Shown here: piece by piece, positions 3 to 47,964 of the stretch
Layout: each line of letters opens with the position of its first letter
Numbering within the stretch: the first letter of the stretch is position 1
IMG/VR virus record: IMGVR_UViG_3300003375_000013
Location: 32,001-96,000 of that record
Direction: 5' to 3' (one strand)
Source: a virus
DNA: 64,000 bases
Made by a program: the position numbers and the translations under genes
Notes under the pieces: model-generated
Seen by the model: only the letters and a program-made list of their open reading frames with translations
Databases searched by the model: none
Told to the model about the DNA's origin: nothing

Positions 3-2498
3 AGATTCTCAACACGCAACTTAAAAGAGTTTCGCAAAGAAGTAGCTATGCATCAAGGCAAACAACTGTACGAATCAGATATTAATCCTGTATTTCGTTG
101 TCTTGAAGAAAACTACAAAAACAAAGATGCTCCCGCATTACATGCGGCATTCTTTGATATTGAGGTAGACTTTCATAAAGAAAAAGGATACTCACCCACC
201 TCAGATCCTTTCAATGCTATTACCGCTATTTCTGTTTATCTACAATGGATGGAACAGTTAGTTACATTGGTAATACCACCTAAGCACATGAGTATGGAAA
301 CAGCAATAGAAATTGCTGCTGATTTTGAAAATACTATTGTATTTGATAAAGAAGAAGAAATGCTCAAGACATTCTTAGACTTGATTGAAGATGCTGATGT
401 ATTGTCAGGATGGAACAGTGAGGGATACGATATTCCATATACGGTAAATCGTATTACCCGTGTACTGAGTAAGGATGATACTCGTAGATTTTGTCTATGG
501 GATCAACATCCAAAAGCTCGTGACTTTGAACGTTACGGTGCTACTAGCACAACATATGACTTAGTTGGTCGTATTCATATGGACTATATGCAATTGTATC
601 GCAAATATACATACGAAGAAAGACATAGCTATAGTTTAGATGCTATTGCTGAGTATGAGCTTGGTGAACACAAAACACAATATGAAGGCACATTAGATCA
701 GCTGTATAATCAAAACTTTAAAAAGTTCATTGAATATAACAGACAAGATACAATGATTCTGCATAAGATTGATACTAAGTTAAAATTAATGGACTTAGCA
801 AATGAACTTGCACACGCCAATACTGTACTAATACCTACTACTATGGGTGCTGTTGCAGTAACTGAGCAAGCTATTATCAATGAAGCACATGAACGTGGGC
901 TAGTTGTGCCTAATCGAAAAGCAAAATCAACTCAAGAGGACACAGCAGCAGCGGGTGCTTATGTAGCATTTCCAAAGAAAGGTATGCATCCTTGGATTGG
1001 AGCTGTTGATATTAACAGTCTGTATCCATCTGCCATTCGTGCGTTGAACATGGGAATGGAAACTGTTATAGGTCAATTAAGACCAATAATGACAGACAAG
1101 TACATCAACGATATCACCGATCAGGGCAAAACATCAACAGTAGCATGGGAAGGTTTATTCTCTTCTCTTGAATACACTGCTGTGATGGAACAAAATCGTG
1201 GCACAGAAATCACAATTGACTGGCAAGATGGCGATAACTCAACTCACTCTGCTGCCGAAGTTTGGAATATGATATTCAACAGTAATCAACCGTGGATGCT
1301 AACAGCAAATGGTACTATTGTTACATATGAGCGCAAGGGTGTAGTTCCAGGGTTACTAGAGCGTTGGTATTCAGAACGTAAAGAACTACAAGCAAAGAAA
1401 AAAGCAGCAACAGATCCAAAAGAAATTGCTTTCTGGGACAAACGACAGTTAGTTAAGAAAATTAACCTTAACAGTCTGTATGGTGCCATTTTAAATCCGC
1501 ATTGCCGATTCTTTGATAAACGTATTGGACAGTCAACTACTCTGTGTGGCAGAAGTATTGCTAAGCATATGGCAGGATACATCAATGAGTGTATCCTTGG
1601 TGAAAAAGATCACTTAGGTGATTCTATCATATATGGAGATACAGACTCATGCTACTTCACAGCATGGCCTGCTATCAAGGATGAAGTAGCTAAGGGCACT
1701 ATGGAGTGGAACAAAGAAATTTGTATTCAGTTGTATGACAGTATCGCTGATCAAGTTAACGAGTCATTTCCTGCATTCATGGAACAAGCGTTTCATTGCC
1801 CACGTGAGGCAGGCGAGTTAATCAAAGCAGGCCGTGAATTAGTGGCATCAAACAGTTTGTTCATTACTAAGAAACGTTATGCTGTATTAATTTATGACTT
1901 AGAAGGTAACCGATTAGACGTGGATGGCAAACCTGGCAAATTAAAAGCCATTGGCCTAGATCTAAAACGTAGTGATACTCCAAAGGTTGTTCAAGAGTTC
2001 TTGTACGAAATTCTCCAGAAGGTTCTTACTGGCACTGAAAGAGCAGAGATTATTGAACGTATACTTGAGTTTAAACTTCAATTCAAGGATCGTCCAGCAT
2101 GGGAGAAAGGCACACCTAAGCGTGTTAATAATCTAACTACCTATACCAAGAAAGAAGAAGCTGCAGGCAAAGCTAATCTGCCAGGGCATGTTCGTGCTGC
2201 GCTGAACTGGAATAATTTGCGTAAGATGAATGGCGATAATTACAGTATGCAAGTCGTCGATGGCATGAAAACTATCGTGTGTAAATTGAAAACAAATCCG
2301 TTAGGATGGAGTAGCATTGGTTATCCTACTGATGAACAACGATTGCCACAATGGTTTAAAGAATTGCCTTTTGATGATAGTTTAATGGAATCAACTATTG
2401 TTGATCAAAAAATTGATAATCTATTAAGCGTTCTAAACTGGGATTTAGCAAGTGCCACTAATACAGACAACACATTTCAATCATTATTTGAGTTTTAA
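3..2498 (+). CDS. Family B DNA polymerase (T4 gp43-like), 5' end outside the window
   Basis: ExoI FFDIEV, ExoII WNSEGYDIPY, ExoIII YNRQD; polymerase motifs DINSLYPS, KINLNSLYG, YGDTDS, KKRY. The frame is open from nt 3, upstream of the ATG at 48. Confidence 0.97.
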   Translation, partial: RFSTRNLKEFRKEVAMHQGKQLYESDINPVFRCLEENYKNKDAPALHAAFFDIEVDFHKEKGYSPTSDPFNAITAISVYLQWMEQLVTLVIPPKHMSMETAIEIAADFENTIVFDKEEEMLKTFLDLIEDADVLSGWNSEGYDIPYTVNRITRVLSKDDTRRFCLWDQHPKARDFERYGATSTTYDLVGRIHMDYMQLYRKYTYEERHSYSLDAIAEYELGEHKTQYEGTLDQLYNQNFKKFIEYNRQDTMILHKIDTKLKLMDLANELAHANTVLIPTTMGAVAVTEQAIINEAHERGLVVPNRKAKSTQEDTAAAGAYVAFPKKGMHPWIGAVDINSLYPSAIRALNMGMETVIGQLRPIMTDKYINDITDQGKTSTVAWEGLFSSLEYTAVMEQNRGTEITIDWQDGDNSTHSAAEVWNMIFNSNQPWMLTANGTIVTYERKGVVPGLLERWYSERKELQAKKKAATDPKEIAFWDKRQLVKKINLNSLYGAILNPHCRFFDKRIGQSTTLCGRSIAKHMAGYINECILGEKDHLGDSIIYGDTDSCYFTAWPAIKDEVAKGTMEWNKEICIQLYDSIADQVNESFPAFMEQAFHCPREAGELIKAGRELVASNSLFITKKRYAVLIYDLEGNRLDVDGKPGKLKAIGLDLKRSDTPKVVQEFLYEILQKVLTGTERAEIIERILEFKLQFKDRPAWEKGTPKRVNNLTTYTKKEEAAGKANLPGHVRAALNWNNLRKMNGDNYSMQVVDGMKTIVCKLKTNPLGWSSIGYPTDEQRLPQWFKELPFDDSLMESTIVDQKIDNLLSVLNWDLASATNTDNTFQSLFEF

Positions 2499-3425
2499 AT
2501 GACAGTAACCGATTTAGTATTTTTTAAAAATCAACTAGACAAATTATCAGTGGCTCCTATATACCAAGAGGCAAATGCCGCACTAGATAAATTTTTATAT
2601 TTGATTGATAATCATTCATCTGAAAATCTTAATAAGTTTGTAAATAAACATTATGGTATAAAAGAGGCATTTGATTCTTTTGATAATGAAGTGGCAACAC
2701 TTAACACAAAATTGAAACAAGATATTGAGGCGGCAGAAAAAGTACTATTTCAACAAAGTTATAGTTCATATCATGATGAAAGTATATACGATGCTTTTCA
2801 TATTCTAGGAAGAAGATGGCAGCCTAATATCAATCTTGACTTGTTCTATGCCAGAGTTAGAAGAAACGTAGATTGGCATTATCCAGCTATGATTCTAAGA
2901 CCTGGCTTTGAAAGCTTTGTTGACGAGTTGGTAGGTTATGATCCATTATATCTTGTTGATGTTAGTCATAAATTTATTGAGCCGGTATTAAGTAAATTCA
3001 ATGAACAATATCAACAGAGATTGCGTGTATATACTGTCAAAGAAGATTCAGATCAAGTGATATTAGGCAAAATTCCTAATAATCAATTTGGCATGATAGT
3101 TGGCTGTCATTTCTTTAATTTTAGACCACTTGAAGTAATTAGGCAATATCTTGAAGAAATTTACACTAAACTAAGGCCAGGTGGAGTGTTTATGATGACA
3201 TTCAACGACTGTGATCGTTGGAGTGCGGTAAAATTGGTGGAAGAGAAGAAGGATGGATCTTATACGCCAGGAAGCTTAATCTTTGAATTAGCCAAAACAT
3301 TAGGATATGAAATTGATTATTGTTGGCATGATGAAGGGCCACAAACCTGGTTAGAATTACGTAAGCCAGGTGTACTAACTTCATTACGTGGTGGACAAAC
3401 ATTGGCTAAAATAATGCCAAAATAA
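2499..3425 (+). CDS. Class I SAM-dependent methyltransferase-like protein
   Basis: C-terminal LEEIYTKLRPGGVFMMTF resembles Rossmann methyltransferase motifs; glycine-rich motif I is degenerate. Confidence 0.5.
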   Translation: MTVTDLVFFKNQLDKLSVAPIYQEANAALDKFLYLIDNHSSENLNKFVNKHYGIKEAFDSFDNEVATLNTKLKQDIEAAEKVLFQQSYSSYHDESIYDAFHILGRRWQPNINLDLFYARVRRNVDWHYPAMILRPGFESFVDELVGYDPLYLVDVSHKFIEPVLSKFNEQYQQRLRVYTVKEDSDQVILGKIPNNQFGMIVGCHFFNFRPLEVIRQYLEEIYTKLRPGGVFMMTFNDCDRWSAVKLVEEKKDGSYTPGSLIFELAKTLGYEIDYCWHDEGPQTWLELRKPGVLTSLRGGQTLAKIMPK

Positions 3426-23067: not shown

Positions 23068-23313
23068 ATGAGCACATACGTAACAGTTGTACAATGGACT
23101 AGAGCAATGAGCGAGTCTGAGAATCAAGATATGATGAATTATATTGCTACTCAAACTGGTGAAAACGGTAAACCTACCACATACGAAGGCGAATATGCTA
23201 GATCGTGGGATGATGAAGCCGCTGCTAATGCGTTTTGTGTGTTTGCTAGATCTTTGCAAGCCGACCAAACAGAAACTGCTCCGACAAGAGCAAGAGTAAT
23301 TAGAATAGATTAA
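23068..23313 (+). CDS. Hypothetical protein (81 aa) between the two tmRNA acceptor copies
   Basis: Strong SD CAGGAG; the stop codon lies in the repeat. Confidence 0.75.
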   Translation: MSTYVTVVQWTRAMSESENQDMMNYIATQTGENGKPTTYEGEYARSWDDEAAANAFCVFARSLQADQTETAPTRARVIRID

Positions 23314-23389
23314 TAGTATTAAAGAATTGTTGTATGAAGTAAAGTAAAAAGTGTTCCGGACGCGGGTTCGACTCCCGCCAGGTCCACCA
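23312..23389 (+). ncRNA. ssrA: Two-piece tmRNA, acceptor piece (5' boundary approximate)
   Basis: T-arm GCGGG-TTCGACT-CCCGC, then CAGGTCC-A-CCA, which pairs with GGGCCTG at 23473 giving G3-U70. Confidence 0.9.
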
Positions 23390-23472
23390 TAAACATATTA
23401 CTAAATCGGCGACCGGTAAAACGTTGATTACCCGGAGCGGGAAGTCTGGATACCTTGTAGTATGTTTTTGAT

Positions 23473-23697
23473 GGGCCTGTCCAGGTTTCGACGGGGCAAC
23501 AAGTAACTGCATGGACAACTCGTCACCAGATAGACGTTAAAAGTGAAAAAACCTAGACGCAAACGCATCTAAAGGCGAAGTAACTGTATCAGCTGGCAAA
23601 GGAATTCGTTTCTCTGCTCGTTCTTCAGTGAAAGCCGAAACTTTCGCAGTTTAATCACTGGCGTAGCGGAGTTATCCGTAGTAACAGAAAATAGCAA
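23473..23697 (+). ncRNA. ssrA: Two-piece tmRNA, coding piece (3' boundary approximate)
   Basis: 5' GGGCCTGTCCAGGTTTCGACGGG; resume context AAAAAACCTAGAC-GCA; tag frame 23559-23654. Confidence 0.9.
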
Positions 23698-29168: not shown

Positions 29169-30641
29169 ATGTATCATGGAATAATCTTATGCGGTAGTAG
29201 GAATGACAGCGCAGGCAGAAATATCGCAGGCTATCGTCTACGCACATCTGCAGAGAAATTCAATTATGATAACTTAGTTATTGATTGCGCTACAGCAATG
29301 ACCCAAGCTGAGTTAGAACTATTACTAGATAATGTCATTACTACTAAGACATTATTTTTAGGTGTCAGTACAGTTTGGTTAGATCGTCCACACAATGCCC
29401 ATGGTGATATTGAATGGATTAACAAAGATTTTTTTGATAGAATTCGTGCTAAGTACCCACAGATAAAAATTGTCGCAGGCGGCAATGGTGTACTAAGAAT
29501 GCCTGGTGCTCGTGATATATATAACTCAGCAGACTGGCACATTAGTGGATTTAGTGATGATAGTTTTCCTAGATTTCTAATGTTATTAGAAGGCAAGTCA
29601 GGACATCAGTTAAAGTATTTTATTGACAGCAATGGTAAAAAAACTGTAGATAGTAATAAGTTTCACACTATCGGAAATCCTGATGACATTGAAACTGTAC
29701 TAAAAGCAGATGATGATTTTTATAGTCATCAACCAATACCATTAGAAGTCAGCAGAGGTTGTATTTTTAGATGTGCGTTTTGTAATCATCCCTTTCAAGG
29801 TGCTAAAGATTACGATTCATACATGAGAACACCTACTAGTCTAAGTAACGAACTTCGCCGTAATTATGAATTGTTTGGCACTACTAGATATTCGTTGATG
29901 GATGATACATTCAATGATAGTATAGAGAAGTTAAACAGACTTGAACAAGCGATAGAATTAGCAAAGATACCAAATTTTGAATTTCAATGCTACATTAAAC
30001 CAGAGTTATTAGTAACTAAGCCCGAGATGATTCCGCAGTTGTTGCGAATGGGGCTTACTGGTGGTTTCGTTGGTATAGAAAGTCTTAGCAATCAAGCTAG
30101 ACGAGCAATGAATAAGGGAATGAATATTGATAAGGTATTACATTCTCTTACAGAGCTAACTAGCACTGGCCAAGTTAAATTAAATGCTGGATTTATAGTA
30201 GGATTGCCAGGTGATACAATAGATGATATGTATAAGACATTTGATTTTTGTAAAGCTAATCCTAAATTATTTAGATCGTGGAATTTCAGTAGCCTTGGAA
30301 TTTATAGTTATAATGATGTTGAAAAAGAATCAACATTAATAAGTCCATTAGAGCGAGATCCAGAAAAATATGGATATACAATTATTAAAAAGCCAGGCGA
30401 AAATAGTTTTTGGAAAAATGAATTTATGACATCCGTTGAATCACTTAATACAGCAGGCAAATTACTAAAACAATCGTCTGAAATTATAAAATGCGGTGGA
30501 TGGGCAATTAGTTCAGCATGGCATAATAATGTATCAGATTATGATATTGATAATAAAACAAGATTAGAATTAAATTTAGAATTAAGTGGTAGACAACTTG
30601 TTCGTGATCGTGCTATAATTACGCTTAAGAAGTTTACTTAG
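29169..30641 (+). CDS. Radical SAM protein with N-terminal B12-binding-like domain
   Basis: EVSRGCIFRCAFC, MDDTFND, VGIES, GFIVGLPGD; late promoter 6 nt upstream. Confidence 0.88.
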   Translation: MYHGIILCGSRNDSAGRNIAGYRLRTSAEKFNYDNLVIDCATAMTQAELELLLDNVITTKTLFLGVSTVWLDRPHNAHGDIEWINKDFFDRIRAKYPQIKIVAGGNGVLRMPGARDIYNSADWHISGFSDDSFPRFLMLLEGKSGHQLKYFIDSNGKKTVDSNKFHTIGNPDDIETVLKADDDFYSHQPIPLEVSRGCIFRCAFCNHPFQGAKDYDSYMRTPTSLSNELRRNYELFGTTRYSLMDDTFNDSIEKLNRLEQAIELAKIPNFEFQCYIKPELLVTKPEMIPQLLRMGLTGGFVGIESLSNQARRAMNKGMNIDKVLHSLTELTSTGQVKLNAGFIVGLPGDTIDDMYKTFDFCKANPKLFRSWNFSSLGIYSYNDVEKESTLISPLERDPEKYGYTIIKKPGENSFWKNEFMTSVESLNTAGKLLKQSSEIIKCGGWAISSAWHNNVSDYDIDNKTRLELNLELSGRQLVRDRAIITLKKFT

Positions 30642-30652
30642 AAACAAATAAC

Positions 30653-30692
30653 GGAGTAGAAGCATCAATGGTGATGCAGCTGACTGTAAATC
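30653..30692 (+). pseudogene. 5' half of a disrupted tRNA-Tyr(GTA)
   Basis: GGAGTAG..GCATC-AATGGT-GATGC-A-GCTGA-CTGTAAA-TC, then abrupt loss of structure. Confidence 0.8.
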
Positions 30693-30725
30693 TACAACTG
30701 TAAACGATAATACATAAATAAAGTT

Positions 30726-31463
30726 ATGGATTATTATTTACACTACGAAAAGTTAATACAGCGAGCAAAATCTAGAATATTAGATGATAAGAAGGAAACA
30801 CATCATGTTATTCCAAGATGTATGGGCGGCACTGATGATAAATCTAATCTAGTAGAGTTAACTCCAGAAGAGCATTATACCGCACATCTTCTATTAACTA
30901 GGATTTATCCCACTAATAGAAAATTAATCAATGCTGCGGCAATGATGATTCCTGGTAGACAGTCTAATAAATTATACGGATGGCTTCGCAGAAGATTTCA
31001 AGATAGACAAAGCGAACTACAAACAGGAGACGGGAATTCTCAGTTTGGAACCATGTGGATATTTAATTTAGAGTTAGAAGAATGTAAAAAAGTACCAAAG
31101 TCTAATCATACACCAAATGGCTGGCAAAAAGGTAGAGTAGTAAATTTTGTATCCTATAAAAATGAACTAATAAAGAAAGAACAGAAAAATATTCTGTACT
31201 CCCAAAGAAAAGAATTTTTGTTAGAATATCAGCAACAAGATAAGTTTAAAAAACAACAAGAACGAGAAATAACAAAAAGAGAATATAAAGAATATATTTT
31301 AGGATTATATGAGGAATTTAAGGCAGGCAACTATTATTCTATTAGTGAATTTCATAAATTAGCCAATGTTTCAGTTTCAAGAATGACCTTGAGTAACTAT
31401 TGGAGAAAATGGGTGCCAGAATATAAAGAAAATTCCAAAGAAGCTAAAAGATACAGGATGTGA
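30726..31463 (+). CDS. HNH homing endonuclease
   Basis: ETHHVIPRCMGGTDDKSNLVELTPEEHYTAH; GNSQFGTMWI-type repeat. Confidence 0.9.
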   Translation: MDYYLHYEKLIQRAKSRILDDKKETHHVIPRCMGGTDDKSNLVELTPEEHYTAHLLLTRIYPTNRKLINAAAMMIPGRQSNKLYGWLRRRFQDRQSELQTGDGNSQFGTMWIFNLELEECKKVPKSNHTPNGWQKGRVVNFVSYKNELIKKEQKNILYSQRKEFLLEYQQQDKFKKQQEREITKREYKEYILGLYEEFKAGNYYSISEFHKLANVSVSRMTLSNYWRKWVPEYKENSKEAKRYRM

Positions 31464-31469
31464 AGATTT

Positions 31470-31556
31470 GGATTGGTATACCTCTAAGGACGGGGCCGTG
31501 ACTGTAAATCACGTGGTTTTATACCTGGCAAGGATCGTTACCTTGACAATCCACCA
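31470..31556 (+). tRNA. tRNA-Tyr(GTA)
   Basis: CGTGA-CTGTAAA-TCACG, long variable arm, A73, CCA; T-loop ATCGTTA. Confidence 0.88.
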
Positions 31557-31562
31557 AGTAAT

Positions 31563-31637
31563 GCAGCTATCGTCTATCGGTTAGGACTCAGGGTTTTCAT
31601 CCCTGCAAGAGGAGTTCGATTCTCCTTAGCTGTACCA
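31563..31637 (+). tRNA. tRNA-Glu(TTC)
   Basis: CAGGG-TTTTCAT-CCCTG; GCAGCTA/TAGCTGT; CCA. Confidence 0.9.
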
Positions 31638-31645
31638 GTTTTAAT

Positions 31646-31738
31646 GGGTAGTAATGCAGCGGGGTTGGTCCTGCGACTGGCCTTGAAAACCAGGTTCTCT
31701 GTAATGGGGATGGGGTTCGACTCCTCTGCTGCCCGCCA
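31646..31738 (+). tRNA. tRNA-Ser(TGA)
   Basis: Loop CTTGAAA, long variable arm, G73, CCA. Confidence 0.9.
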
Positions 31739-31886
31739 AGTAACTACTGTTGAGAGACAGTGGCTAGCCGATAAGTTAACTGACAAGATTGCCTAATTAA
31801 CAATCTTAGTTAATTTATTAACTCTCTTAGTGGAGGATTTCCTGTGCCACTTAAAATAAGACGCAGGAGCCAAATTTTAAGTTTAC

Positions 31887-31978
31887 GGAACGGTGGCCGA
31901 GTGGCCTAAGGCAGCAGGTTGCTAACCTGTCGTATACAGCAATGTGTACCGTGAGTTCGAATCTCACCTGTTCCGCCA
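31887..31978 (+). tRNA. tRNA-Ser(GCT)
   Basis: GCAGG-TTGCTAA-CCTGT, long variable arm, G73, CCA. Confidence 0.93.
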
Positions 31979-31980
31979 AT

Positions 31981-32075
31981 GGTAGATAGCACTGGAGTGC
32001 GGCGGGCCCTTATAAAGCCCGGAGACTGGTCAGATGGGCTGGAACGGCAGGGATCGTAACCCTGATCTACTACCA
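31981..32075 (+). tRNA. tRNA-Ile(TAT), atypical (short D-loop, long variable region)
   Basis: GGTAGAT/ATCTACT, A73, CCA; loop CTTATAA; T-loop ATCGTAA. Confidence 0.7.
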
Positions 32076-32165: not shown

Positions 32166-32242
32166 ACCTGTTTAGCTCAGCTGGTTAGAGCACCATCTTG
32201 ATAAGGTGGGGGTCTCTGGTTCGATTCCAGAAACAGGTACCA
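32166..32242 (+). tRNA. tRNA-Ile(GAT)
   Basis: CCATC-TTGATAA-GGTGG; ACCTGTT/AACAGGT; CCA. Confidence 0.93.
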
Positions 32243-32256
32243 GTATAAATACTATT

Positions 32257-32763
32257 ATGAAAATCATAGAACTATTAACAGAATCTACAAGCCAGTTTGA
32301 TCCATTATTAATTGAATTTTGGAAATCTAGTAGCCCAGCAGATTTGAAATATTTCTTTGTTCAAAACAACTGCTATGGGGCATCGCAGTCTTTTATGGAA
32401 TTTCTTGAAAATAAAGGAATTCACACAGCAGAAATTGTACCAATTGGCCGTGTACGCAATGGTAAAAAAACTGAAGGATGGTTTCATGCAGATGTTCCAG
32501 ATACAACATTAGATGCATTTACTAAGGAAGATATAGCTGCATGTAAAAGTCAAGGTTTAGATCCTCGTAAAAAAGCAGATCGAATTGCATATATTACCAA
32601 CAACAATCTTGAAGACGAGTTCAAATGGATTCCCCATAGTTGGGTAGAAGTTCGTGGACAAATTTTAGATCCCAGCGGATTTTACATTGACGGTAAGAGC
32701 GGTCAGTTCGACCATTTAGTACACAACAAATCAAATTTATCACAACGATATCAATATTTTTAA
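32257..32763 (+). CDS. Hypothetical protein with a transglutaminase-like Cys-His-Asp arrangement
   Basis: MKIIELLTES start 5 nt after TATAAATA; NNCYGAS...PHSWVEV....LDPS. The ORF-track start lies inside a tRNA. Confidence 0.6.
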   Translation: MKIIELLTESTSQFDPLLIEFWKSSSPADLKYFFVQNNCYGASQSFMEFLENKGIHTAEIVPIGRVRNGKKTEGWFHADVPDTTLDAFTKEDIAACKSQGLDPRKKADRIAYITNNNLEDEFKWIPHSWVEVRGQILDPSGFYIDGKSGQFDHLVHNKSNLSQRYQYF

Positions 32764-32861: not shown

Positions 32862-33332
32862 ATGAAGTTCAACATACCACAAATCAAAGAGTTCATAGAT
32901 AGACAAGGTCCCAACACTAAAATTTATATTGGTGTTGACTCGGAGCGAATTAAAAAAGGTACACAATGGTACGCTGACTATACGGCAGCTATCGTTGTTC
33001 ACTTAGATGGAAAACATGGTTGTAAGCTGTTTGGTGAGGTAACTCGTGAAAGAGATTACGACCGAGTTGACAAACCTAACACTAGGCTTATGACCGAAGT
33101 TTTTAAAGTTTCGGAACTGTATCTTAAACTAGCAGAAGTTCTGGAAAATCGTGAGGTTTCGGTACATTTAGATATTAATCCGAATGATCAACATGCCAGC
33201 TCTAATGTAGTGGCACAAGCTATTGGATATATTCGCGGTACTTGTAATGTAGAGCCACAAGTTAAGCCACATGCATGGGCTGCTTCGTATGCTGCGGATA
33301 GGTTTAAAGGTTTAAAAGTTGCTAATTCTTAA
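32862..33332 (+). CDS. RNase H-like YkuK (DUF458) family protein
   Basis: IYIGVDS, RLMTEV, VHLDINPN, KPHAWAASYAAD. Confidence 0.82.
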   Translation: MKFNIPQIKEFIDRQGPNTKIYIGVDSERIKKGTQWYADYTAAIVVHLDGKHGCKLFGEVTRERDYDRVDKPNTRLMTEVFKVSELYLKLAEVLENREVSVHLDINPNDQHASSNVVAQAIGYIRGTCNVEPQVKPHAWAASYAADRFKGLKVANS

Positions 33333-34004
33333 AAATGAAGGATCACGGCCTTTATGAAATCCTTCCGGAATTGGATCACAAACAGGATGCTTACGACTTA
33401 AAGTTCCGTTTGTGATCCAGCAAAATTTTCCAATAGATTTTTTACGGCCTTTATCCATAGCATCTAATACAGATTGTGGTCTCTTTTTTCCGGCCATTGG
33501 ATTAGGTTTTCCTGCGCTAACTTGTTCTTGTCGTATTTTACTTAAGTGTTCGGAGCGAATCTGTTTTAATTCTTTTGCTTTTTCATTTCCGTAAATTTCT
33601 TCATAAGTTTTGCCTTTAAGAATTCCTTTTCTGCCTTTGGAAATATTAGTGCGAGATTCAGGAGAAGTTGAACTAAAACGATTATGACCAAGTGTTTTAT
33701 CAAAATAATGTTTGTTTAAACATAATGGATTTTTAATATTTTCTTTAATTAAATCTTGTTCAAACCAATAAGCATCATCACTAGCTGTTTCAGTGTAAAA
33801 TTCAGCAACAACCGACCATATAAAGTCATTAAAGTTGTCTTTTACTAGCTGTGCAGATGAACATGTGTTATAATGAAATCCTAAATCTAAATGAGATTGA
33901 ATTTTATTTTTTTCACGATATCCGATATAAAATTGACCGGTAACTTTATGAATGCCAATATAGACATAAGGATAATTTTTATTTTTATATAAATGATTTT
34001 TCAT
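33312..34004 (-). CDS. GIY-YIG-type homing endonuclease
   Basis: YPYVYIGIHKVTGQFYIGYR, FEQDLI, LNKH, NPMAGK; start probably ATG 34004, 5 nt after TAAATA. Confidence 0.82.
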   Translation of the reverse strand: MKNHLYKNKNYPYVYIGIHKVTGQFYIGYREKNKIQSHLDLGFHYNTCSSAQLVKDNFNDFIWSVVAEFYTETASDDAYWFEQDLIKENIKNPLCLNKHYFDKTLGHNRFSSTSPESRTNISKGRKGILKGKTYEEIYGNEKAKELKQIRSEHLSKIRQEQVSAGKPNPMAGKKRPQSVLDAMDKGRKKSIGKFCWITNGTLSRKHPVCDPIPEGFHKGRDPSFLRISNF

Positions 34005-34075
34005 ATAAGTATTTATACATCTAGACATTAATCAGAGAGAAAAATGAGAGTAACAACTAAAAAGGATGTAAAATT

Positions 34076-36420: not shown

Positions 36421-36496
36421 TGGAGATTAGCCAAGCTGGTAAGGCAACGGATTTTGATTCCGTCATACACAGGTTCGAACCCTGTATCTCCTGCCA
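36421..36496 (+). tRNA. tRNA-Gln(TTG)
   Basis: ACGGA-TTTTGAT-TCCGT; weak 1-72 pair; G73; CCA. Confidence 0.92.
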
Positions 36497-38769: not shown

Positions 38770-38844
38770 CCGGCCATAGTTAAATGGATATAACTAGGGA
38801 TTTCTACTCCCTTATTGTGGGTTCGATTCCTGCTGGCCGGACCA
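38770..38844 (+). tRNA. tRNA-Arg(TCT)
   Basis: AGGGA-TTTCTAC-TCCCT; CCGGCCA/TGGCCGG; CCA. Confidence 0.88.
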
Positions 38845-47465: not shown

Positions 47466-47879
47466 ATGAAATATTTTAAATGCTTACACTGTAGTAAAGA
47501 TTGTCTATGGTCACACCGTAAAACAAACAAATACTGTGATACACAATGTCAAGTAGACTATCAAAGGGATTTTCGTATCAAAGAATGGTTAGAAGAAGGT
47601 AAAGATTTTATAGGACAACAAATACCAAAGTGGGTTAGATATGCTCTTACGTCTCGGTATGGTGATAATTGTAGTGTTTGTAAAATTACAGAATATAATA
47701 ATATGCCAATTACTCTTGAAGTAGATCATGTTGATGGTGATCATAAAAATAATAAAATTGAAAATTTAAGATTTATATGCCCAAATTGTCACAGTCAAAC
47801 TTCAACGTATAAGTATAAAAATGCAGGAAATGGAAGGCATAGTAGAAGACAAAGATACGCAGAAGGAAAGAGTTTTTAG
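47466..47879 (+). CDS. HNH homing endonuclease
   Basis: CSVC...LEVDHVDGDHKNNKIENLRFICPNCHSQT. Confidence 0.92.
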   Translation: MKYFKCLHCSKDCLWSHRKTNKYCDTQCQVDYQRDFRIKEWLEEGKDFIGQQIPKWVRYALTSRYGDNCSVCKITEYNNMPITLEVDHVDGDHKNNKIENLRFICPNCHSQTSTYKYKNAGNGRHSRRQRYAEGKSF

Positions 47880-47888
47880 TAGTACAAT

Positions 47889-47964
47889 TGGCCAGTAGCT
47901 CAGTCGGTAGAGCAAATGTCTGTTAAACATTAGGTCGGTGGATCGTGCCCACCCTGGCCAGCCA
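47889..47964 (+). tRNA. tRNA-Asn(GTT)
   Basis: AATGT-CTGTTAA-ACATT; TGGCCAG/CTGGCCA; G73; T-loop ATCGTGC. Confidence 0.9.

Follow-up and report, generated by a model that had tools for sequence, protein, structure and literature searches.

The locus described here raises the question of how a phage tRNA-Tyr gene came to be broken off directly behind its anticodon, with a nuclease gene and a second, complete but divergent tRNA-Tyr gene following the break. It lies in a stretch of 64,000 nucleotides (nt), the whole of which is called the window in the following. The window covers positions 32,001 to 96,000 of the IMG/VR virus record IMGVR_UViG_3300003375_000013, which is 177 kb long, has a CheckV completeness of 51%, and represents an uncultured phage from a freshwater (lake) metagenome. 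All coordinates are window positions unless a contig is named, and designations such as L003 and L133 are contig labels. The preliminary description of the locus had proposed an intronless homing element that destroys a tRNA gene and carries a substitute for it. Based on the analyses described below, it is indeed probable that a free-standing (intronless) homing cassette, consisting of a leader, an HNH gene and a divergent tRNA-Tyr gene, has replaced the 3' half of a resident tRNA-Tyr gene. The resident type and the replacement are called A type and B type, respectively. The locus is composed of the following parts:

30653-30692, plus strand: 5' remnant of an A-type tRNA-Tyr gene, positions 1-40 of the tRNA (alignment, BLAST)
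30693-30725, plus strand: cassette leader, 33 nt between the remnant and the ATG of the HNH gene
30699-30742, plus strand: predicted RNA hairpin, in which an anticodon-loop copy and the promoter region pair with the start codon and codons 2-6
30726-31463, plus strand: Mob-like HNH homing endonuclease gene, an open frame of 245 amino acids (aa)
31470-31556, plus strand: B-type tRNA-Tyr(GTA), the replacement copy, 87 nt, located 6 nt after the HNH stop codon

The positions of the remnant, the HNH gene, the 6-nt gap and the downstream tRNA were thereby all confirmed. The remnant comprises the 5' strand of the acceptor stem, a D stem of 4 bp with an 8-nt loop, the 5' strand of the anticodon stem, and the anticodon loop (30684-30690), in which two more bases follow the GTA anticodon (30686-30688). 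It is 95-100% identical to positions 1-40 of intact A-type tRNA-Tyr genes; e.g., the BLAST alignment with the tRNA-Tyr of L024 had an identity of 95% over positions 1-40. The first 26 nt of the remnant were present in 48 IMG/VR contigs, and a complete tRNA of 83-87 nt was found in every one of them. The anticodon was GTA in 47 cases. The exception was L048 (positions 13-95, minus strand), in which the A-type body has a different 7-nt anticodon loop without GTA; either a switch of the anticodon or decay of the gene may account for it. The cloverleaf was kept in 20 distinct A-type sequences with eight covarying pairs, a number that was not attained in any of 500 shuffles. The A type is a genuine, conserved phage tRNA-Tyr. 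The window and L133, a metagenome contig with the same layout, align to this set of 20 sequences up to position 39/40 and diverge wholly thereafter.

The closest relative of the window is L003, a contig of 21.6 kb, which can be compared with the window from the gene upstream of the cassette to the tRNA gene downstream of it:

29169-30641: radical-SAM gene (Pfam PF04055), directly upstream of the remnant
31563-31637, plus strand: intact tRNA-Glu(TTC), right-hand neighbor of the cassette (ARAGORN; Rfam 54.3 bits)

The radical-SAM proteins of the two are 95% identical, and the left flank has a nucleotide identity of 92.6% over 1.5 kb. In L003 the radical-SAM gene is likewise followed by a tRNA-Tyr gene at this locus, which is of the A type and intact; it is also missed by ARAGORN with default settings. 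The homology between the two sequences ends at window position 30693, i.e., at tRNA position 40/41, and restarts at 31607. The L003 contig lacks both the HNH gene and the B-type tRNA throughout. The resident gene at this locus had thus been a conserved A-type tRNA-Tyr, and the break is where the anticodon loop meets the 3' strand of its stem, at position 39-41. An intact tRNA cannot be rebuilt from the window arrangement by a deletion, and therefore the intact gene came first and the window represents an insertion-replacement. It had been predicted that relatives without the HNH gene would have an intact tRNA-Tyr gene, and this was the case for the 48 IMG/VR contigs, one of which is L003; the combination of the fragment with the downstream tRNA was seen in none of them.

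L003 has undergone a break-and-replace event of its own at the adjacent tRNA-Glu gene (L003:7624-8415). In this case an open reading frame (ORF) of 224 aa, with a PD-(D/E)XK-like motif recognized by eye and weak matches to PHROG 'endonuclease' entries, is followed by a divergent tRNA-Glu with a T loop of the A54/T58 type (see below) and then by positions 45-75 of the window-type tRNA-Glu. The nuclease belongs to another family than the HNH protein, and the remnant is on the opposite (3') side. Because L003 has this replacement, which extends from tRNA-Tyr to the middle of tRNA-Glu, the right-hand boundary of the cassette cannot be read from L003.

The comparison with L003 also bears on a reading in which the fragment is cargo from a former home of the HNH gene and the B-type tRNA-Tyr is the lineage's own resident gene. 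An argument against it is that in L003 precisely this place is held by an intact A type. In addition, B-type tRNAs without the HNH gene were found neither in the IMG/VR scans nor at the 48 A-type loci, and in L133 the B type is again accompanied by both the HNH gene and a remnant.

The minimum-energy fold of the B type is a four-armed type II cloverleaf with the GTA anticodon, a long variable arm, A73 and CCA. Its T loop has A54 and T58, the reverse of the near-universal T54/A58. ARAGORN called it tRNA-Tyr at a relaxed threshold only and not by default, and the Rfam tRNA model RF00005 gave no match up to E = 10. It is likely that the A54/T58 T loop and an atypical D arm are the reasons why tRNA models miss it. 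The B type is the sole tRNA-Tyr in the 177-kb record. A and B types are identical in 12 nt around the anticodon, and B differs from A in all stems, the variable arm and the T loop. Beyond the anticodon, 55-57 of 94 alignment columns were identical, compared with 49.7 +/- 2.5 for shuffled sequences; the earlier view that the two genes are related around the anticodon only was thus borne out. Two B-type sequences are known, those of the window and of L133. They are 96% identical, with pair 3:70 changed in a compensatory way and one indel in a loop. When IMG/VR was scanned for exact copies of two stretches of the B type, no match was obtained.

The HNH protein matched phrog_655 'homing endonuclease' with E = 3.5e-48, and its Pfam HNH score was 18.1 bits, under the cut-off of 21.4. 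At the nucleotide level the gene is similar to T-even genes annotated as 'similar to mobB'. The residues H26, H27, N41, H50 and H54 were invariant across 34 homologs and are all present in the window protein, and the HNH (beta-beta-alpha-metal) motif aligned with HNH regions of solved proteins, with weak E-values of 0.02-0.03. The AlphaFold2 (AF2) model (mean confidence score pLDDT 88.7) consists of the HNH part (residues 1-60), a beta region (109-135), a long helix (141-200) and a three-helix end (206-237). The C-terminal helical domain probably binds DNA. With the AF2 model as query, Foldseek and VIA-align gave no convincing match (best Z = 5.7, with weak winged-helix-like matches to residues 172-245) and no match resembling I-HmuI, the latter being uninformative either way. 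The HNH gene copies of the window and L133 share 85% of their amino acids and 88.6% of their nucleotides, and the ratio of nonsynonymous to synonymous substitution rates (dN/dS) was 0.17, indicating that the gene is maintained by purifying selection. A decaying fossil gene is unlikely on the same grounds. The protein is also not a member of the SegB type, which has a GIY-YIG domain; being an HNH protein, it may act like SegB without belonging to it.

The leader contains a second copy of the tRNA-Tyr anticodon loop at 30696-30705. In addition, a motif similar to T4-type late promoters, CATAAATA, is located at 30713-30720 and ends 5 nt 5' of the ATG. The late promoter of the preliminary description is thus a T4-type motif, and it is conserved across the HNH family: the core [AT]TAAATA was present within 70 nt upstream in 49 of 60 homologs located in tRNA arrays, the background being 3.4%. 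The spacing between this core and the ATG in the homologs is either 4-5 nt, as in the window (5 nt), or 15-33 nt. The short spacing of 4-5 nt was seen in about 18 array-borne loci, including the window (30713-30728), and suggests that late nuclease transcripts could be leaderless or nearly so. The leader of L133 is nearly identical, and remnant plus leader together are 92% identical. The ViennaRNA fold of 30651-30756, which includes the predicted hairpin, had an energy of -22.1 kcal/mol with z = -2.9. Far stronger hairpins were predicted for many homolog loci, with the target anticodon loop as the 5' arm, the promoter motif in the hairpin loop and the 3' arm abutting the ATG. The sequences of the hairpin arms change in step with the identity of the tRNA (Asn, Gln, Lys, Arg, Met, Asp, Thr and Tyr). 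For I-TevI, I-TevII, I-TevIII and segB of T4, and for mobE of phage Aeh1, it has been described that the start of the endonuclease gene is hidden in read-through transcripts, and that late transcripts starting inside the hairpin leave it exposed (PMC2988022). In addition, I-TevI represses its own promoter via an operator that resembles its homing site (PMC2988022). By analogy, either occlusion of the start codon by the hairpin or autorepression at the loop-like site would fit the layout of the leader.

The cassette recurs in a different tRNA array and in other samples. L133 has a remnant of 39 nt followed by the leader, the HNH gene and the B-type tRNA in the same layout, and it has other neighbors on either side: downstream there is a tRNA-Cys in the place of tRNA-Glu, and the upstream region is without the radical-SAM gene. 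Contigs with the cassette were also found in three other lake metagenome runs from two other studies, with identities of 99.3-99.8% (0-6 differences). One of them, an independent contig of run X2, spans 30663-31564 with 6 differences. Together with the layout of L133, this contig rules out an assembly artefact. The only contigs of the left flank that were found in these runs were 89-94% identical. This contrast is a weak hint at over-inheritance of the cassette, the contigs showing presence and not absence. In runs X2 and X3 loose ends at 30692 continue into the intact A-type 3' half, so that carrier and potential recipient alleles co-occur in these samples.

Further ways of restoring the broken tRNA were considered and rejected. 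An Rfam scan of 30300-32000 with E up to 10 revealed no intron family, and thus a group I intron was rejected. ARAGORN with intron search found no split or interrupted tRNA-Tyr. The 7-nt complement of the remnant's acceptor strand occurs at 38804 and 49805 only, i.e., not nearby, which argues against a split tRNA. Pairing of the remnant with the B type was ruled out because the latter has its own matching acceptor strands.

The next question was whether related nucleases occupy the same place in other tRNA genes. HNH homologs were found at 80 IMG/VR loci, the closest about 22 of which are in tRNA arrays, and an alignment-based metagenome scan added more array-borne loci. A scan with the window HNH protein alone had L052 as its sole match, and P0002 was among the closest protein homologs (87%). 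At most of the roughly 22 IMG/VR loci in arrays a tRNA starts between -25 and +72 nt of the HNH stop codon. In 23 of the 37 loci left after dereplication, a copy of the downstream tRNA's anticodon loop, with an exact anticodon and one mismatch at most, was present no more than 120 nt upstream of the HNH start codon, compared with 11.6% for the control of mismatched pairs (P = 3e-13). Clear 5' remnants were seen for Gln, Lys, Arg(ACG), Gly(TCC), Ala, Val and Tyr. They end at position 22-43 or within the T loop, and overall the layout of the HNH family was found at tRNAs of at least ten identities. Sister nucleases thus hold the same structural position in other tRNA genes, beside a tRNA with the same anticodon. 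All six loci with an HNH protein at least 46% identical in full length to that of the window are at tRNA-Tyr.

A reciprocal case of presence and absence is formed by the window and L056, in which an HNH homolog follows after position 42 of a tRNA-Gln and is itself followed by a divergent tRNA-Gln. The 42 nt of the L056 remnant are identical to a gene that is intact in the window:

36421-36496: intact tRNA-Gln of the window

Many homologs align merely to the first 57-75% of the HNH protein. The similarity of homolog pairs was 0.52 in the N-terminal part for neighbors of the same isoacceptor versus 0.48 for others, and the respective values for the C-terminal part were 0.19 and 0.04. This would be expected if the C-terminal domain reads the target tRNA gene.

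These family data are also relevant for the view that the HNH gene is a passenger of ordinary array recombination at short conserved stretches (e.g., the anticodon loop or the T loop), that an illegitimate exchange between two arrays brought the fragment, the HNH gene and the second tRNA-Tyr together, and that tRNA-Tyr was never a target. The array is in fact mosaic: the tRNA-Ser(GCT) alleles of the window and L003 are only about 71% alike, and several tRNAs and ORFs differ or are absent. Furthermore, microhomology-mediated joining leaves a second copy such as that of the loop at the junction, and the downstream tRNA is sometimes of another isotype. The same nuclease family at the same position of tRNAs of so many identities, with a matching loop upstream, speaks against a mere passenger, as does the observation that the C-terminal domain tracks the tRNA identity and the catalytic domain does not. 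The purifying selection on the HNH gene and the identity of the cassette of more than 99% across samples of different studies and years point in the same direction, and a passenger role is therefore regarded as improbable.

Two further observations were made at the homolog loci. First, there is a second class of junctions, in which the remnant runs through the anticodon arm, stops in the T loop after position 57, and is followed by the promoter motif (L071, L166, L168, L171, L156, L064 and L154). A part of the HNH family therefore enters at the T loop and not at the anticodon loop. Second, the replacement tRNA-Tyr of L052 is followed by a short hairpin (3311-3343). This hairpin terminates with a sequence exactly complementary to the 5' acceptor strand of the A type, together with CCA-like bases, and may represent what is left of the 3' end of the broken tRNA.

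The layout is not confined to metagenomes. In the Vibrio phage VB_VaC_SRILMA, the first 38-40 nt or so of a tRNA-Thr (X) are followed by TATAAATA, a Shine-Dalgarno sequence, an HNH homolog, and a second tRNA-Thr (Y), which has an atypical T loop and overlaps the HNH stop codon. At the same locus, phage pv27 has an intact X, and the phages phiKT1024, Va1 and phiTY18 have Y alone. These three states are as expected for a homing cycle and would correspond to a sensitive, an invaded, and a nuclease-free resistant allele. Pairs of nuclease-free and nuclease-bearing alleles at one locus were thus found for the window and L003, for L056 and the window, and for SRILMA, pv27 and phiKT1024. An Asn version of the layout is present in the Rhizobium phage LG08 and the Synechococcus phage S-CBWM1. 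In the four records inspected (SRILMA, LG08, S-CBWM1 and pv27) the nuclease gene and the tRNAs are annotated, and no remnant is marked.

The occurrence of Y alone has two consequences. It means that Y could predate the nuclease, as the resident gene would in the reading with the fragment as cargo. In pv27, X is intact at this very place, so the X fragment of SRILMA is equally a local remnant, and together with the evidence from L003 and L133 this makes the cargo reading very improbable. In addition, a Y allele without nuclease indicates that the replacement may be a pre-existing resistant allele. The proposal of an intronless homing element with a carried replacement was thus supported, with the refinement that the replacement, which also exists without the nuclease in the Vibrio phages, may not be a copy recoded for the purpose.

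For the insertion-replacement by a homing cassette the following mechanism is proposed. During co-infection, the HNH enzyme would nick or cut the A-type gene of nuclease-free relatives, which would be read by the variable C-terminal domain. The damage would then be repaired by recombination with the carrier genome, for which the upstream flank together with the 5' half of the tRNA would serve as one arm and the downstream array as the second. The repair would copy the leader, the HNH gene and the B-type tRNA, and the 3' half of the target would be deleted. Due to its differing stems, variable arm and T loop, the B-type gene would escape recognition, and it would keep up the tRNA-Tyr supply of the phage. 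Expression would probably be late-only, either through the late promoter combined with a hairpin that hides the start codon in array read-through, or through autorepression at the loop-like site. Precedents are MobA and MobE, which nick the DNA of their targets and are over-inherited when infections are mixed (PMC2988022).

Several points weigh against this explanation. Nicking, cleavage and homing by the HNH enzyme and its close homologs are predicted activities, inferred from sequence. Free-standing endonucleases can cut far off, and thus the end of the remnant marks the insertion boundary and not necessarily the cut. The rule that remnant and replacement have the same isotype is broken at L054, where a Lys remnant is combined with a downstream Arg, and at L058 and L059, where an Asn motif upstream is combined with Thr downstream. 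The similar C-termini of nucleases with the same target may have been acquired through descent alone. The B type fails both the Rfam tRNA model and default ARAGORN, and its presumed function is deduced from three observations: the cloverleaf fold, a single compensatory pair, and the absence of any other tRNA-Tyr from a record that is 51% complete. Lastly, A and B types share the 12 anticodon nt, and if the loop is the recognition core, the immunity of the B type must rest on the flanks.

The unusual T loop of the B type is not a singular case. T loops with A54/T58 were found in 7 of 38 tRNAs directly behind HNH genes versus 18 of 357 other tRNAs at the same loci (about 4-fold; Fisher P = 0.006; loci L052-L212, which are not phylogenetically independent). 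SegB has been described to read a conserved T-stem-loop motif (PMC13096335), and the A54/T58 loops might be nuclease-resistant alleles. A further A54/T58-type T loop was seen in the tRNA-Asn of the window (47889-47964). It is preceded by a small, unrelated HNH gene (137 aa, phrog_10822), which ends 10 nt 5' of it (region 47466-47964); no clear tRNA remnant was seen upstream of this gene.

The enrichment behind HNH genes would also suit a view that overlaps with the homing explanation and is compatible with it, i.e., that the replacement tRNA is the selected payload, which escapes host defences that cut tRNAs by its different variable arm and reversed T-loop pair, and that the nuclease is mainly the vehicle. 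Securing the tRNA supply of the phage against the insertion of the cassette itself would then come second. Septu cuts tRNA-Tyr in its variable loop, SegB amplifies tRNA-Tyr, and phage tRNA-Tyr counters such defences (PMC13096335). Many replacement tRNAs have ordinary T loops, though, the enrichment is modest and affected by the non-independence of the loci, and the break-and-replace layout can be explained without a host benefit. A payload selected in this way is thus judged unlikely. A broader idea, which is put forward tentatively and is itself rather doubtful, is that the turnover of phage tRNAs, and even their shape, is driven to a major extent by nuclease attack on tRNA genes. Entire clades of Mob-like HNH genes, entering at the anticodon loop or at the T loop, as well as other nucleases, would spread as drives that cut the target and carry a spare. 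The odd features of the spares, such as A54/U58, would then have been selected at the DNA level for immunity to nucleases that read the T loop, such as SegB, and may secondarily protect from host defences that cut tRNAs.

The cassette is part of a tRNA array of about 25 kb, in which ARAGORN found 24 tRNA genes with default settings and 27 when the threshold was relaxed. Three further, more distant HNH paralogs are present elsewhere in the 177-kb record. A comparison with GenBank phages revealed no close relative of the region; the matches were merely of tRNA size, in addition to about 67% nucleotide similarity to T-even mobB-like genes. Between tRNA-Glu and tRNA-Ser a tRNA-like element (31647-31736) with an oversized anticodon loop was noticed, which default ARAGORN missed. 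It scored 32 bits with the Rfam tRNA-Sec model (cut-off 47) and is conserved to 100% in L003 and to 86-93% in seven other contigs. A permuted transfer-messenger RNA (tmRNA) is encoded at 23278-23620 (Rfam RF04321 108.9 bits, beta_tmRNA 91.7 bits); it is kept in L003, where the tag peptide differs by one change. An ORF of 185 aa (32206-32763) separates tRNA-Ile and tRNA-Trp in the window and is absent from L003, in which these tRNAs are 25 nt apart. Further along the array, on the minus strand, a GIY-YIG-like homing endonuclease gene (phrog_314) is located at 33312-34028. The ORF and this gene point to further nuclease-linked mosaicism in the array.

A comparison with known systems revealed likenesses and differences in each case. 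SegB of T4 is also encoded by a free-standing nuclease gene in a phage tRNA array and cuts tRNA genes of SegB-free relatives (PMC2330249; PMC13096335). It is co-inherited with neighboring tRNA genes while those of the recipient are excluded, and it is likewise controlled by a late promoter and a hairpin. In contrast to the protein studied here, SegB is a GIY-YIG enzyme with relaxed specificity that reads the T-stem-loop at the 3' end of many tRNA genes, and its gene is located between intact tRNA genes, without any description of a remnant and an isotype-matched spare. The Mob family of T4 (MobA-E) shares phrog_655, an N-terminal HNH domain combined with a C-terminal DNA-binding region, free-standing genes, and late promoters (PMC2790892; PMC2988022). 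However, mob genes are found between or within protein-coding genes (the nrd genes, gene 39, the 45.2/46 interval), with MobE homing at nrdB (PMC2790892), and none has been reported inside a tRNA gene or with a replacement of its target. In the Aeromonas phage Aeh1, mobE is a Mob-type HNH gene that splits nrdA and is controlled by a hairpin and a late promoter, but the NrdA pieces reassemble as protein and there is thus no replacement copy (cited in PMC2988022); a tRNA cannot be rescued in this manner.

The mORFs of fungal mitochondria (atp6 of Allomyces; atp6, atp9, cox2 and nad3 of Glomus) are similar in that they are intronless insertions that bring a foreign, divergent gene part and leave an unexpressed native remnant (PMC3630166). 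They differ in being organellar, in encoding LAGLIDADG or GIY-YIG enzymes and in targeting protein genes, of which the 3' end alone is replaced, in frame and upstream of the ORF (PMC3630166). The phage cassette, in contrast, supplies a whole RNA gene downstream of the ORF and leaves the 5' part behind. Group I introns with homing endonucleases in anticodon loops of bacterial tRNA genes reside in the same tRNA region, but there the tRNA is restored by splicing and not by a second complete gene (PMC3984707).

Taken together, the phage arrangement is probably a new form of free-standing homing, to which SegB/Mob homing and the fungal mORFs are the nearest concepts. No description of a remnant combined with a replacement in phage tRNA genes was found in the literature, in a search that left subscription journals largely uncovered. 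Homing endonucleases in essential genes are usually thought to persist via introns, inteins or intergenic sites. Here, a free-standing nuclease gene resides inside an RNA gene that can neither be spliced nor be reassembled from pieces, and a complete spare linked to it would make up for the loss. The cassette is thus a natural analogue of the engineered 'cleave and rescue' gene drives. Cultured phages of Vibrio, Rhizobium and Synechococcus have the same layout without its being annotated, and the Vibrio phages have the sensitive allele, the cassette and the nuclease-free resistant allele at one locus, so that the arrangement is directly testable. For phage tRNA arrays in general, the cassette offers a mechanism for their fast turnover and mosaic make-up, for the tRNA fragments that they contain, and for atypical tRNAs that are missed by tRNA finders.

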